From positions 29,136-93,135 of the forward strand of contig CANBAL010000004.1 in assembly GCA_947366545.1 (NCBI GenBank): a stretch of 64,000 nucleotides of DNA, in the 5' to 3' direction. How positions within the stretch are numbered: position 1 is the stretch's first letter; each line of letters opens with the position of its first letter. Source of the stretch: an uncultured Clostridia bacterium. GTDB taxonomy: Bacteria > Bacillota > Clostridia > Christensenellales > UBA1242. The position numbers and the translations under genes were made by a program. The notes beneath the pieces are model-generated. The model had not been told where the DNA came from. It worked only from the letters and a program-made list of their open reading frames with translations, and searched no databases. Below, piece after piece: positions 4,788 to 60,533 of the stretch.

Positions 4788-4861
4788 GCGGGTGTAGTTC
4801 AGTGGTAGAACACTAGCCTTCCAAGCTGGTTGCGAGGGTCCGATTCCCTTCACCCGCTCCA
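4788..4861 (+). tRNA. tRNA-Gly (anticodon TCC)
   Basis: Hand-folded cloverleaf. The acceptor pairs GCGGGTG with CACCCGC, the anticodon loop is CTTCCAA, the T-loop is present and CCA is encoded. Confidence 0.9.
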
Positions 4862-4864
4862 CGA

Positions 4865-4941
<77 letters not shown>

Positions 4942-4945
4942 ATAT

Positions 4946-5022
4946 GGTGGTCGTAGTTCAGTTGGTAGAACGCCAGATTGTGGCTCTGGAGGTCAAGAGT
5001 TCGATCCTCTTCGATCACCCCA
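4946..5022 (+). tRNA. tRNA-His (anticodon GTG) with encoded G-1
   Basis: The extra 5' G (4946) lies opposite discriminator C. The acceptor pairs GTGGTCG with CGATCAC, the anticodon loop is TTGTGGC and CCA is encoded. Confidence 0.9.
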
Positions 5023-5052
5023 TATTATTTTTAGCGTGGATTCCCATTGTGA

Positions 5053-5128
5053 TGGGGTGTCGCCAAGCGGTAAGGCATTGGACTCTGACTCCAACATTGC
5101 GTAGGTTCGAATCCTACCACCCCAGCCA
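5053..5128 (+). tRNA. tRNA-Gln (anticodon CTG)
   Basis: The acceptor pairs TGGGGTG with CACCCCA, the anticodon stem-loop is TTGGA-CTCTGAC-TCCAA and CCA is encoded. Confidence 0.9.
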
Positions 5129-5208
5129 AGCGAAAAACTGCGTTTGGGCGGGCTTACCTTTGGCAAGACACAACCTTGTAAAAATTCAATAATAGCACCT
5201 CAGCATAT

Positions 5209-5284
5209 GGCCTACTAGCTCAGTTGGTAGAGCACTTGACTTTTAATCAAGGGGTCCCGGGTTCGAGCCCCGGGTAGACCACCA
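5209..5284 (+). tRNA. tRNA-Lys (anticodon TTT)
   Basis: The D-arm is GCTCAGTTGGTAGAGC, the anticodon stem-loop is CTTGA-CTTTTAA-TCAAG and the T-arm is CCGGG-TTCGAGC-CCCGG. The acceptor GGCCTAC/GTAGACC carries a C3-A70 mismatch. Confidence 0.8.
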
Positions 5285-5359
5285 TGGGGTGTCGCCAAGC
5301 GGTAAGGCACAAGATTTTGATTCTTGCATGCGTAGGTTCAAATCCTGCCACCCCAGCCA
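5285..5359 (+). tRNA. tRNA-Gln (anticodon TTG)
   Basis: The acceptor and D-arm match the first tRNA-Gln. The anticodon stem-loop is CAAGA-TTTTGAT-TCTTG and CCA is encoded. It starts at the base right after the CCA of tRNA-Lys. Confidence 0.9.
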
Positions 5360-6943: not shown

Positions 6944-7068
6944 CTATCCATAAAGAGTGTGCGAGGGACAGCCCCATTGACCACACAGCAACCTGTCAGG
7001 GTTTTCAAAAAATTTATTTTTAAATTTTGGGGAAGAGATAAGGTGCTAAAGGCTGAATGATGGGTGGA
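6944..7068 (+). promoter_or_regulatory. SAM (S-box, SAM-I-like) riboswitch aptamer
   Basis: The conserved core elements appear in order: AAAGAG, GAGGGAC, GCCCC, TTGA, GCAACC and GGTGCTAAA. P1 pairs ATCCAT (6946-6951) with ATGGGT (7060-7065). The element sits directly upstream of metK. Confidence 0.75.
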
Positions 7069-55502: not shown

Positions 55503-56507
55503 ATGGTAATTACAGAGCGTAAAAAGCAGATATTATGCATGGCAGTCGAGGAATATATCAAAGACTGCGCACCTATCACAAGTGGTGGGATTAAAGATAA
55601 AGGGCTTGACTGTTCAACTGCGACACTGCGAAATGAACTGAACGCACTTGAGGCTATGGGCTTTTTAAAACAACTGCATACCTCTGGGGGCAGGGTGCCA
55701 ACCGTGCAAGGATATCGCTTTTATGTAGAAAACCTTTTGAGTGGGATTAAAGCCACTGATAAGGAACTGGAAAGCGTGAGAGAACTTATCTCATCACGAA
55801 CAAACAGCCTAAATGAAATCATTTCTGGTATCGCAAAGATAGTAAGTCACGCAACGAATTATCCTACCGTGGTTATGATGGATGGAATGGAAAACCTTAT
55901 TTTAAGTGAATTTAAGATTATTCCACTACTTGAAAACAAACTTATGGTGCTTATCGGTACAATGGCTGGCTATATCACAAACACCCTTGATATATCTGCC
56001 ACTGGGCAGGAGTGCCAAGATGCCTCAAACTACTTAACCAAAAACTTTAAGGGTGCCACCATTGGCTATATGCTTGACAACATGCCATATCTTCAAGAAG
56101 GAATGAGCGGGGAAATCAAGGCTTTTCAAAACATTGTCGATTCCCTAATTGGTGGACTTAAGAAAATTAACAGCCAAAAACTTTTAGGGGTATCGCGTGA
56201 GGGTAGTGTGAAACTGCTGGAAGATGGCAAAAGTGTTGAGGAGGCCAAAAAAGTCCTTTCCATGCTTGATGACAAGGAAAAACTTGAAAAATCACTGGAG
56301 CTTAGTGGTAAAGGTGAAATTGAGGTTTCGCTTGCTGAGGAAGAGGAAGGCAAGGAATGTTCGGTGGTTAAAGCACCTATCTTAGTCCAAGGGCGGCAAC
56401 TGGCATCCATTGGAGTGATTGGACCTCAGAGAATGGACTACTCGGGAATAGCATCAGCACTTAAAGTCGTGATAGACGAACTTAGAGAAATAAAAGGGGA
56501 TGATTAA
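55503..56507 (+). CDS. hrcA: Heat-inducible transcription repressor HrcA
   Basis: N-terminal winged helix (TERKKQILCMAVEEYIKDCAPITSGGI...STATLRNELNALEAMGFL). It is the first gene after CIRCE. Confidence 0.92.
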   Translation: MVITERKKQILCMAVEEYIKDCAPITSGGIKDKGLDCSTATLRNELNALEAMGFLKQLHTSGGRVPTVQGYRFYVENLLSGIKATDKELESVRELISSRTNSLNEIISGIAKIVSHATNYPTVVMMDGMENLILSEFKIIPLLENKLMVLIGTMAGYITNTLDISATGQECQDASNYLTKNFKGATIGYMLDNMPYLQEGMSGEIKAFQNIVDSLIGGLKKINSQKLLGVSREGSVKLLEDGKSVEEAKKVLSMLDDKEKLEKSLELSGKGEIEVSLAEEEEGKECSVVKAPILVQGRQLASIGVIGPQRMDYSGIASALKVVIDELREIKGDD

Positions 56508-57098
56508 GTGTCAAAGAATGAAGAATTAGAAAAAGAATGTAACTGCACAGAAGATTGCCACTGCGGGAAACATTGCGAATGTGATAGTGAAAACAAATGT
56601 AGTGACAACTGTCAGTGCGGTTGCGATTGCGAGGAAGAATGCGAATGCGGTGAAAATTGCGAATGCGCTTGCGAAGAGGAAAAAGACAAATATCTCCTCC
56701 TTGCCCAGCAGGTTCAAGCAGATTTTGATAACTTCCGTCGCCGGTCCCGTGAGGAAATAGAGCGGGCGAGAACCAGCGGACAGGTGTCGGTGATAGAGGC
56801 GTTTCTGCCCTGCCTTGATACCTTTAAAGAGGCGAAAAAGTTAATCACCGACGAAAGCGTACTTCAAGGCGTTGAGATGATTGAAAATAAAATTCTTTCA
56901 GCCTTAAAAGAACTTGGAGTGGAAAAAATTGAAAGTGTTGGGCAGGTTTACAGCCCACATCTCCACAACGCAATAGCGGTTATGAGAGATGAAAGCAAAG
57001 AAAATGATATCATCTTGGAAGAATTCCAAGCAGGATATAAATACAAAGACAAAGTAATAAGATATGCGAAAGTCATAGTCAATAAAAAGGAGGGTTAA
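56508..57098 (+). CDS. grpE: Nucleotide exchange factor GrpE with a Cys-rich N-terminal extension
   Basis: The GrpE core ([13 protein letters not shown] ... [13 protein letters not shown]) is preceded by residues 11-55, which contain 16 Cys in CxC/CxxxC spacing. It uses a GTG start after AAAGGGGA. There is no in-frame ATG, GTG or TTG between this start and the core. Confidence 0.9.
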
Positions 57099-58930: not shown

Positions 58931-59400
58931 ATGAAAACATTAATTATCGTTGATATGCAAAAGGGCTTTATTAATAAAAATAATGAATTTTTAGTAAAAA
59001 ATATCGAAAATTTATTAAAAAATCATAAATTTGATAGAGTTTTTGCAACAAAGTTTGTAAACAACTTAGATAGTCAATATGTAAAATTATTAAATTTTGA
59101 TAGAATGTGTGATGCAAAGTCACAAGAATTTGCTGTGACTTTGCCCGATACTGCGGTGATTTTGGAGAAAACCTCTTATGCCCTGCCAACTGAATTTGTG
59201 GGGGGGGAACAAAGGAGGTTTTCCTCTGTGGCACTGATTATGACGCCTGTGTGCTAGCCATTGCATATCAATTATTTGATAAGGGTATTCAGCCCCGTAT
59301 AATTATGGACTGCACAGGTAGTGCATCAAATAATCCACTTGATAAAAATGAGTTTAAAAAACTTTGCCGAAGAAATTTTGGCGAAAAATCGATAGTATAA
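58931..59400 (+). pseudogene. Isochorismatase/cysteine hydrolase family gene, frameshifted in a G8 tract
   Basis: The N-terminus MKTLIIVDMQKGF is the typical beta1-DxQ pattern. After the tract, the other frame reads TKEVFLCGTDYDACVLAIAYQLFDKGIQPRIIMDCTGS (catalytic Cys motif) and ends at the TAA at 59398-59400. One extra G restores a single ORF. The alternative start is 58916. Confidence 0.75.
59200..59207 (+). repeat. G8 homopolymer tract inside the isochorismatase-family gene
   Basis: The sequence reads directly as tttgt-GGGGGGGG-aacaaagg. Confidence 0.95.
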
Positions 59401-59408
59401 GGACAATT

Positions 59409-60533
59409 ATGGCAAACAAAGACTATTATTCAATTTTAGGTGTTGAAAAGACGGCGGGGGAGGACGAAATTAAGTCCGCCTATCGTCGCATGGCAAAAAA
59501 ATATCACCCTGATTTAAATAAAACTCCTGAGGCGGCTGAAAAGTTTAAGGAAGTCAACGAGGCTTACTCAGTGCTTAGCGACCCTCAAAAGAAGGCTAAT
59601 TATGATCAGTTTGGCTCAGCCGATGGCCCACAATTCAGTGGTGGTCAAGGCGGGGCTGGCTTTGGCGACTTCTTTGGTGGTGGCGGTGGTTTTGGTGATT
59701 TCTTTAGTGACATCTTTTCTGCCTTTGGTGGCGGAGCAAGAGGAGCGCGCGCAACTCAGCGTGGGCAAGATATAAATGCATCAATGAATCTTTCCTTTGA
59801 AGAGGCTTGCTTTGGCTGTGAGAAGAATATCACTGTAGGACGAATTGAAACTTGCAATGCTTGTTCTGGCACAGGTGCAAGAAATGGAAAAGATTATTCC
59901 GTTTGCCCAGACTGTCATGGTAGTGGCAGAGTACGCTTCCAGCAAAACACCATGATGGGCACTATTGTGCGTGAGGGCGAATGTCCTAAATGTGGTGGCA
60001 GCGGTAAAATTATCCGTGAAAAATGCAGTGTATGTAATGGTAAAGGCTATCAAAGAGTCAACAAGACAATTAAAGTTAAAGTACCAGCAGGTATTGATGA
60101 TGACCAAACACTTCGTATGCGTGGCGAAGGAAATGCTCCAATGGGCGAGGGAACAAATGGTGACCTTAATATACGCATAAAGGTGGAGAAACACAAGTTG
60201 CTTGTAAGAAAGGGCAGTGATATCTGTCTTGACCTATATCTTCCATTTACAACCACTTTGCTCGGCGGTAAGGTGGAAATCCCAACACTTGACGGGGATT
60301 ACACATTAAATATTCCGGAGCTTACTGCAAGTGGCACTGTGATGAGGATTAAAAATAAGGGTGTAAAGATACTTAATCGTGAGTCGCGAGGTGATATGCT
60401 TGTGACAATCAAAGCGGAAGTGCCAAAAAGTCTTGATAAACAGACTAAGGCAAAGATAGAAGACCTTGCATCATGTTTTAATACCAGTTCCTATGCAAAA
60501 TATGATAAATTTTTAAAAAATAAGAAAAAATAG
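59409..60533 (+). CDS. dnaJ: Molecular chaperone DnaJ
   Basis: The ATG at 59409 opens [12 protein letters not shown]. It has a J-domain HPD, a Gly/Phe region and four CxxCxGxG zinc motifs. The listed 59364 start lies within the upstream pseudogene. Confidence 0.95.

Follow-up and report, generated by a model that had tools for sequence, protein, structure and literature searches.

We analysed a 64,000-nt stretch of DNA (hereafter the window; position 1 is its first letter), in which the nucleotide exchange factor GrpE, encoded in an hrcA-grpE-dnaK-dnaJ operon, carries a cysteine-rich tail in front of a canonical GrpE domain. Judged from the sequences of its relatives, this tail is a clade trait of uncultured gut Clostridia and not a one-off. 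Its repeat, CxCG[D/E]xC, recurs in a second GrpE lineage and on unrelated proteins. Metal binding appears to be the most likely property of the tail, well supported by comparison, though indirectly. On balance, we somewhat favour the explanation that a portable metal-thiolate tail makes the stress-induced GrpE a cytosolic buffer or store of metal. What is new here would be a canonical GrpE with a putative metal-binding tail of the sort carried by HspA and SlyD or found in metallothioneins.

Cysteine-rich tail of the GrpE in the window

An earlier reading of the letters of the window (the original prediction) had named the protein as a GrpE, and this identity was confirmed. The Pfam GrpE model (PF01025) matched residues 55-193 only, with E = 1.9e-34 and a score of 119 bits (cutoff, 25.8). 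Among the NCBIfam GrpE models, the best one matched with E = 4e-36, yet its score remained under the equivalog cutoff (124.5 versus 137 bits). Three solved GrpEs were matched by sequence, namely 4ANI_A of Geobacillus kaustophilus, which was the best (E = 3e-27), 3A6M, and 1DKG. AlphaFold2, run with 31 relatives, modelled the GrpE domain as a long helix (residues 55-112), another helix (116-135), and a beta domain (138-192), with a predicted local distance difference test score (pLDDT) of about 90. G121 aligned with position 122 of 1DKG (E. coli G122) and was invariant in 31 relatives; in E. coli GrpE, G122 is needed for DnaK binding (PMC12915176). As far as can be read from the sequence, the nucleotide-exchange domain is unaltered, and its function is presumably the normal one.

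Subsequently, the segment in front of this domain was examined. When the 45 residues were read from the open reading frame (ORF), the 16 cysteines that had been assigned to residues 11-55 were found exactly. The spacings from one Cys to the next are 2,4,2,4,2,6,4,2,2,2,4,2,4,2,2, with seven non-overlapping CxC matches. The tail otherwise contains two His and a single Leu, and no F, W or Y occurs in residues 1-61. Cys accounts for 1.7% of the residues in the long ORFs of the window, and proteome-wide cysteine richness was accordingly rejected as the cause for the available 64 kb. With this background, the binomial chance of at least 16 Cys in 45 residues is 2.8e-17, and 8 Cys is the most reached by any other 45-residue stretch in the ORFs of the window. 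AlphaFold2 gave residues 1-54 a pLDDT of 38-51 and no secondary structure; this would be expected for a metal-dependent fold modelled without metal, and is not evidence for one. The original prediction had also placed the GrpE helix directly after the cysteine module. This part has to be amended, as three Glu residues (56-58) part the last Cys from KDKYLLL; the long helix modelled by AlphaFold2 starts from residue 55.

The claim that the Cys segment cannot be skipped by an internal start was upheld. Upstream of codon 84 (ATA), the frame contains none of the start-like codons ATG, GTG, TTG, CTG, ATT, and ATC, and codon 84 itself is beyond FDNFRRR, inside the conserved helix. We compared the window with three close relatives from metagenome assemblies, L082, L083, and L084, whose GrpEs are 95%, 83%, and 77% identical to that of the window. 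The GTG start stands at the identical place in all four genes, each of which lies behind hrcA. In the three closest pairs, the proportions of nonsynonymous and synonymous differences in the tail (pN/pS) were 0.014/0.174, 0.022/0.462, and 0.020/0.355, a constraint like that of the GrpE domain. When the tail was compared with that of L084, the synonymous sites were saturated (pS about 1.0, pN about 0.17), so that the ratio was not computable. All of the 15 ungapped Cys columns were invariant, and six of them had synonymous changes between TGT and TGC.

The length of the tail was found to vary in frame. The window and L082 differ by a clean 6-aa indel with the unit DNCTCG. Furthermore, a near-identical contig in a rat-gut DNA run (X1) had 48 nt instead of 6 nt at 56611/56618, which is a net gain of 42 nt, in frame; this variant inside the Cys-rich module is a strain-level length polymorphism. 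Clusters formed at 90% identity mix GrpEs of different lengths, for example 201/206 aa and 262-268 aa. The module contains an 18-nt (6-codon) tandem repeat, whose unit is, from these sequences, the unit gained and lost, and the length of the tail changes by whole codons. Taken together, the low pN/pS, the invariant Cys columns, and the in-frame indels indicate that the tail is coding and under purifying selection. Three gut RNA runs were also examined. Their coverage was confined to two stretches of related organisms, the conserved beginning of dnaK and the region upstream of hrcA, and the tail region lay outside it.

The tail occupies the place of an element with a described function. In E. 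coli GrpE, the disordered tail (residues 1-33) enters the substrate cleft of DnaK via a hydrophobic motif, 17-IIM-19, and ordinary bacterial GrpE tails have many Glu residues and two or three hydrophobic positions with acidic residues on either side (PMC12915176). In the complex, the tail adjoins the substrate-binding domain of DnaK, and its role as a pseudo-substrate has become clear only recently (PMC12915176, 2026). The tail in the window resembles that of E. coli in its position, predicted disorder, and richness in Glu, whereas it has a single Leu and 16 Cys where the E. coli tail binds DnaK via IIM. Hydrophobic residues make up 3.9% of 234 Cys-rich tails and 14.3% of 65 ordinary tails. 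At least two consecutive hydrophobic residues were present in 46 (20%) of the Cys-rich tails versus 36 (55%) of the ordinary ones; when the last 8 aa were left out, the numbers were 31 (13%) and 29 (45%), respectively. As the DnaK-binding hydrophobic motif is absent, the tail in the window is not simply a modified pseudo-substrate tail. With this motif lost and a single Leu present, the pseudo-substrate function is probably weakened or altered.

Spread of the tail among GrpEs and on other proteins

The sequence of the window, which belongs to a member of the Clostridia, was found in rat and mouse gut metagenomes. A Cys-rich N-terminus was present in 119 of the 120 best homologues of its GrpE (50-95% identity), and the scored tails of these homologues had a median of 16 Cys (range 0-31) and a median length of 72 aa. 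When the search was started from the His-rich GrpE of L008, 116 further GrpE clusters were obtained; all 115 scored tails had at least 4 Cys, and 73 had at least 8 His. Overall, 234 of the 235 scored related GrpE tails were Cys-rich, with 4-35 Cys and often also His (up to 33). Conservation of the extension in related Clostridia, which the original prediction had named as a check, was thus strongly positive. The database names seen for the relatives, few in number, were plain ones, "nucleotide exchange factor GrpE" or "molecular chaperone GrpE".

The taxonomy was taken from the labels of metagenome-assembled genomes (MAGs), that is, GTDB record titles and the NCBI names Clostridia bacterium and Candidatus Caccovivens. 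With one genome per GTDB species, tails with at least 4 Cys were observed only in records labelled as uncultured Clostridia, Clostridiales, Firmicutes, or "Catabacter", the last of which is Christensenella in the NCBI taxonomy. The carriers that had environmental or organism labels were all from gut samples, and the labelled taxa were all uncultured gut Clostridia MAGs. GrpEs of Bacillus and Paenibacillus (Bacillota), Actinomycetota, Acidobacteriota, and others had tails with 0-1 Cys, in line with the earlier statement that ordinary GrpE tails are not Cys-rich. Three exceptions (L048, L063, and L066, with 2-5 Cys) derived from ORF calls extended far upstream. In a rough neighbour-joining distance tree of the GrpE domain (about 125 residues), the Cys-rich members were placed in one clade, with low counts at its base (L011, L012, L014, and L016), heavy loads in the crown, and a His-rich sub-clade; L026 was on a long basal branch. 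Scattered members were tail-less (L002, L003, L010, L022, L038, and P0090). The position of four of them (L002, L003, L010, and P0090) inside the clade suggests that the tail may be dispensable for the core chaperone function.

The composition of the tail was then calculated family-wide within the Cys-rich core. Cys amounted to 30% and Glu plus Asp to 29%, followed by Gly (8%), Lys and Asn (7% each), and His (6%), while hydrophobic residues were at 1% and Pro at 0.1%. The commonest Cys spacing was CxC (895 cases), and the next were CxxxC (511), which is usually filled with G-[E/D]-[N/E/D], and CxxxxxC (150). A core motif, C.C.{3,5}[KR]C...C.C, was found in 81 of 118 tails and is present in that of the window. 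The leader before the first Cys has a median of 13 aa in the family, compared with 10 in the window. The length of the tail ranges from 28 to more than 130 aa, apart from L026 (2061-3203), whose tail of 257 aa with 39 Cys and 17 His was the largest seen; it is built of ACNSDCDCGCVD-like units plus HHNHHHHHNHHH. The tail of L008 has 14 Cys and 28 His and contains HEHKHKHHHDHECHCHKHDH. By their sequence, the His-rich additions in L008 and L026 look unmistakably like metal-binding sequence.

Searches with the tail alone were also attempted. A word-indexed protein search gave no candidate, an exhaustive HMMER search gave one irrelevant eukaryotic low-complexity protein (P0121), and a sequence search of the PDB gave nothing, with no homology to a solved metallothionein. 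Composition filters defeat such tail-only searches; hence, metagenome contigs were scanned for a degenerate DNA pattern encoding CxCG[D/E]xCxCG[D/E]xC. By our own estimate, this pattern occurs at about 1 in 2e12 positions. The scan yielded at least 120 loci, with 123 motif-bearing ORFs. Among the matches listed, GrpE N-termini accounted for 10 of the 123 motif-bearing ORFs, and L148 was the only GrpE of the clade of the window. The remaining nine (L091, L093, L127, L129, L159, L184, L188, L189, and L205) formed a second group, which is 28-32% identical to the GrpE of the window and has 10-19 Cys in the tail and then a coiled coil of full length. The Pfam GrpE model matched the four members checked (L093, L127, L129, and L159) with E = 1e-45 to 1e-49. 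A match to hrcA and/or dnaK adjoins grpE in eight of the nine, and L205 had none on its short contig. From the sequences, the two distant GrpE lineages with Cys-rich tails may represent either independent acquisition or an ancient trait.

The other carriers that were assigned by Pfam are SlyD-like FKBP isomerases (L132 and L150), a CusF copper-binding protein (L100), a Thioredoxin_3 protein (L092), a single-cluster ferredoxin (L194), a histidyl-tRNA synthetase (L135), an HxlR regulator (L170), an FMN_bind protein (L103), and an AraC/GyrI regulator (L139). On these Pfam-confirmed hosts, the CxCG[D/E]xC repeat sits as an N- or C-terminal tail. In addition, the motif scan, without a Pfam run, found stand-alone ORFs of 55-59 aa with 16-17 Cys (L104, L158, and L182), which are candidate free bacterial metallothioneins. 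The CxCG[D/E]xC repeat thus appears to be a portable tail; its hosts include proteins in which metal-binding tails or metal sites are known, and GrpE is a recurrent host.

Possible functions of the tail

In the explanation that we favour, the usual acidic and disordered tail with its small hydrophobic patch would have been replaced by repeats of the CxC/CxxxC type, whose unit is CxCG[D/E]x. The thiolates, together with His, Asp, and Glu, could bind several soft metal ions per chain in the cytoplasm of an anaerobe, which is reduced. According to the ratios of Cys to metal in metallothioneins, 16 Cys would hold about five divalent ions per chain, or more Cu(I), and a GrpE dimer would hold twice that. 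Metals cause proteotoxic stress, which would induce GrpE, an abundant protein, and the metal store would consequently rise with stress. The second function of GrpE, in which the tail occupies the substrate cleft of DnaK, would then be weakened or depend on the metal or redox state of the tail. Metal binding is favoured because a sub-clade adds His runs and because the same repeat occurs on SlyD-like FKBPs and CusF. The GrpE tail of L093 also matched Pfam Metallothio_2 with 26 bits against a cutoff of 23 (whole-protein). Furthermore, the variable repeat number and Cys count, the drift toward His, and the occasional loss would, as read from these sequences, be more in keeping with a trait of capacity than with a precise switch.

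A similar arrangement has been described for HspA (GroES) of Helicobacter pylori. Its tail, which the chaperone function does not require, binds Ni in vitro and is used to store and sequester the metal, and deletion of the tail leaves the cells viable, lowers the cellular Ni content, and raises the sensitivity to Ni (PMC3856676). HspA, which is essential, resembles the GrpE of the window in being a heat-shock co-chaperone with a terminal low-complexity Cys/His tail, and the composition of the His-rich GrpE variants (L008 and P0122-P0133) resembles that of the HspA tail. However, HspA is the co-chaperonin of Hsp60 and has its tail at the C-terminus, whereas GrpE is the exchange factor of Hsp70 and has its tail at the N-terminus. 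The HspA tail, of about 27 aa, is dominated by His, whereas that of the window has 16 Cys and only 2 His. Moreover, H. pylori is regarded as peculiar in having the HspA extension, whereas the GrpE tail occurs in hundreds of species-level clusters. Another Ni-binding protein is SlyD (PMC3856676). Like the GrpE of the window, SlyD is a folding helper with a disordered tail, which in SlyD is used for metal handling, and the metagenomic SlyD-like proteins L132 and L150 carry the very same CxCG[D/E]xC repeat as the GrpE tails. The SlyD tail, which is made up of His, Cys, and acidic residues, differs in that it lies at the C-terminus of another host domain and has a described partner, HypB, whereas the GrpE tail is N-terminal with no known partner. 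Metallothioneins (Metallothio_2, Metallothio_5, and the SmtA/BmtA type) share with the GrpE tail a Cys content of about 30%, CxC motifs, the lack of aromatic residues, and predicted disorder. They are, however, small free proteins, whereas the GrpE segment is the strongly acidic N-terminal 55 residues of a protein in which it is fused to a 140-aa enzyme-like domain.

In the full-text literature, we found no description of GrpE with Cys-rich, metallothionein-like, or His-rich tails, nor one of Cys-rich tails of bacterial chaperones, and the words "metal" and "zinc" are absent from a 2025 review of GrpE-like factors. To our knowledge, H. pylori HspA is so far the only co-chaperone of a major chaperone system known as a metal store. 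GrpE is among the most studied co-chaperones, and its tail has been replaced by a metallothionein-like or His-rich sequence in a large group of uncultured gut Clostridia and in a second, distant lineage. If the tail binds metal, GrpE would be the second such co-chaperone after HspA and a far more widespread one, and it would offer a simple handle on the metal and oxidative-stress biology of gut anaerobes that have not yet been grown. As a portable tail, CxCG[D/E]xC repeats would also be useful for annotating metal-handling proteins in metagenomes.

Several points weigh against the tail as a metal store. In the 64-kb window, no metal-homeostasis gene adjoins the operon, and there is no other Cys-rich protein. 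The tail in the window scored under every Pfam metallothionein threshold (Metallothio_5, 8 bits, E = 4.2, cutoff 25), and its acidity greatly exceeds that of classical metallothioneins. A role more specific than that of a generic sponge is suggested by the conserved core motif and the near-universal retention of the tail. Composition and analogy are the source of all that is said on metals, the other carriers were listed from one pattern scan (at least 120 loci), and no result here separates storage from sensing.

Sensing was the idea of the original prediction, in which the Hsp70 cycle would be switched by metal or redox state through the tail. The tail is placed at the tip of the GrpE coiled coil, and metal loading, metal loss, or disulfide formation upon exposure to oxygen or oxidants would alter the release of nucleotide or substrate by GrpE. 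DnaK would then keep hold of its clients when a strict anaerobe meets oxidative or metal stress. We regard such a switch as possible, though rather unlikely. It would agree with the action of ordinary GrpE tails on the substrate-binding domain of DnaK (PMC12915176), and with the redox sensing of two GrpE relatives, Mge1 by Met oxidation (PMC3596242) and GrpEL2 by a Cys disulfide (PMC12987570). The decrease in the hydrophobic fraction (3.9% versus 14.3%), which implies that the function of the tail has changed, the core motif conserved in 81/118 tails, and the gut origin of the labelled carriers are also in its favour. More generally, chaperone activity is adjusted through the chemistry of Cys or Met during oxidative stress in Hsp33, M. 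tuberculosis Ruc, yeast Mge1, and vertebrate GrpEL2, among which Ruc is a Cys-containing redox-regulated chaperone (PMC7448276). These proteins, however, use one to four fixed residues, whereas the GrpE tails have 4-35 Cys in a repeat of variable length. A zinc centre of the Hsp33 type, with four fixed Cys and one Zn, does not match either, as the number of Cys varies and their positions shift with the repeat number. The range of tail lengths (28 to more than 130 aa, and 39 Cys in 257 aa in L026), the His runs in some tails, the loss of the tail in close relatives, and the decoration of unrelated proteins with the same repeat likewise argue against a precise switch. Storage and switching are compatible with each other. 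A Cys/His tail that serves as a regulatory module, coupling the Hsp70 cycle to the metal or redox state and gating exchange or release by DnaK, is in our view unlikely. If it were true, oxygen, oxidants, and thiophilic metals would shift the tail among loaded, empty, and disulfide forms, and independent acquisition in two lineages would point to a selected link between DnaK and metal or redox state, beyond a place for a metal sponge.

Other thiol chemistry, in which the tail would house an Fe-S cluster, carry sulfane sulfur or polysulfide, or, in bacteria without glutathione, serve as a sacrificial thiol buffer, seems improbable. The thiol density is very high, the gut Clostridia that carry the tail are presumably anaerobes living with sulfide, as judged from their habitat, and the same tails occur on ferredoxin and thioredoxin-like proteins. 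On the other hand, the CxC/CxxxC spacing differs from CxxCxxC, the usual Cys pattern of Fe-S sites, and both the His-rich variants and the presence of the repeat on SlyD and CusF speak for metal ions. We consider it quite improbable that the tail is a functionless low-complexity expansion, in which a slippage-prone 18-nt repeat would have grown neutrally in a tolerant disordered tail. Such growth would explain the tandem repeat itself, the repeat-unit indels between strains, the very variable length, and the close relatives without a tail (L002, L003, L010, and P0090). It is, however, difficult to reconcile with the pN/pS of the three closest pairs, which is well under 1, and with the Cys columns, which stay invariant despite synonymous changes. 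The tail has also been kept in 234/235 GrpEs while the GrpE domains diverged to about 50% identity, it recurs in a second GrpE lineage, and its composition is tightly constrained. Absence of the tail from the mature protein, by downstream initiation or N-terminal cleavage, is very improbable. The three gut RNA runs leave the tail region uncovered, which would allow for it, whereas the first start-like codon is codon 84 inside the conserved helix, the GTG is coupled to the hrcA stop and preceded by a Shine-Dalgarno-like sequence, and conservation at the amino-acid level in more than 230 orthologues would be pointless if the tail were untranslated. The reading as a metal-thiolate buffer or store is the one that we retain.

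Heat-shock operon and neighbouring sequences

The features of the operon and of the GrpE protein are listed in Table 1.

Table 1 Features of the hrcA-grpE-dnaK-dnaJ region, in coordinates of the window.
Feature	Position	Strand	Basis or remark
CIRCE-like operator, CTAGCACTT-N9-GAGTGCTAA	55418..55444	+	Upstream of hrcA; 2 mismatches to the consensus
hrcA, 334 aa	55503..56507	+	Pfam HrcA, E = 7.7e-30; stop TAA (56505-56507) abuts the GTG of grpE
Shine-Dalgarno-like AAAGGGG	56493..56499	+	8 nt 5' of the grpE GTG; read from the sequence
grpE, 196 aa, GTG start, stop included	56508..57098	+	ORF, Pfam, NCBIfam, and PDB match
GrpE residues 1-10, short acidic/basic leader	56508..56537	+	Only aliphatic residue is L7
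GrpE residues 11-55, Cys-rich module	56538..56672	+	16 Cys in 45 aa; contains the family core motif
18-nt (6-codon) tandem repeat in the module	56622..56667	+	Tandem Repeats Finder: period 18, 2.6 copies
GrpE residues 55-193, canonical GrpE domain	56670..57086	+	Pfam; AlphaFold2 pLDDT about 90
GrpE residues 56-61 (EEEKDK), acidic start of the long helix	56673..56690	+	Sequence, AlphaFold2
dnaK, 608 aa	57103..58929	+	Starts 4 nt past grpE; 91% identical to the DnaK of L001
dnaJ	59409..60533	+	Likelier start ATG 59409; longest ORF from TTG 59364

The operator resembling CIRCE (controlling inverted repeat of chaperone expression) was the one match in the window, where 0.03 would be expected by chance. 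Its location upstream of hrcA presumably marks the operon as heat-shock genes controlled by HrcA. The gene order hrcA-grpE-dnaK-dnaJ with CIRCE is a housekeeping context, and the same order was observed in relatives. As for the start of dnaJ, the ATG, which is the usual start of the J-domain, is likelier than the TTG, from which the longest ORF overlaps the end of the reading frame of an isochorismatase-family gene.

Two further candidates were considered and discarded. An antisense ORF of 63 aa (56526-56717, minus strand), whose product would be very hydrophobic, was rejected as a gene because it mirrors the TGC and GAA codons of the tail (GCA = Ala, TTC = Phe) and because the sense frame varies at synonymous sites. 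A precursor of a radical-SAM-modified peptide of the SCIFF-like type, with many Cys in about 45 residues, was dropped since in-frame fusion of the segment to GrpE is seen in every relative and no maturase gene lies in the operon.

The isochorismatase-family gene lies between dnaK and dnaJ (58931-59397) and is frameshifted near 59200-59218. Residues 1-96 of the homologue in L084 align in one frame and residues 91-156 in another. This damaged gene is either a pseudogene or the result of an assembly error. In L084 and L085, the isochorismatase gene is followed by a DUF4932 gene, which is absent from the window. Elsewhere in the window, an Rfam scan found a cluster of six tRNA genes and an S-adenosylmethionine (SAM) riboswitch, at 4788-5356 and 6945-7066.

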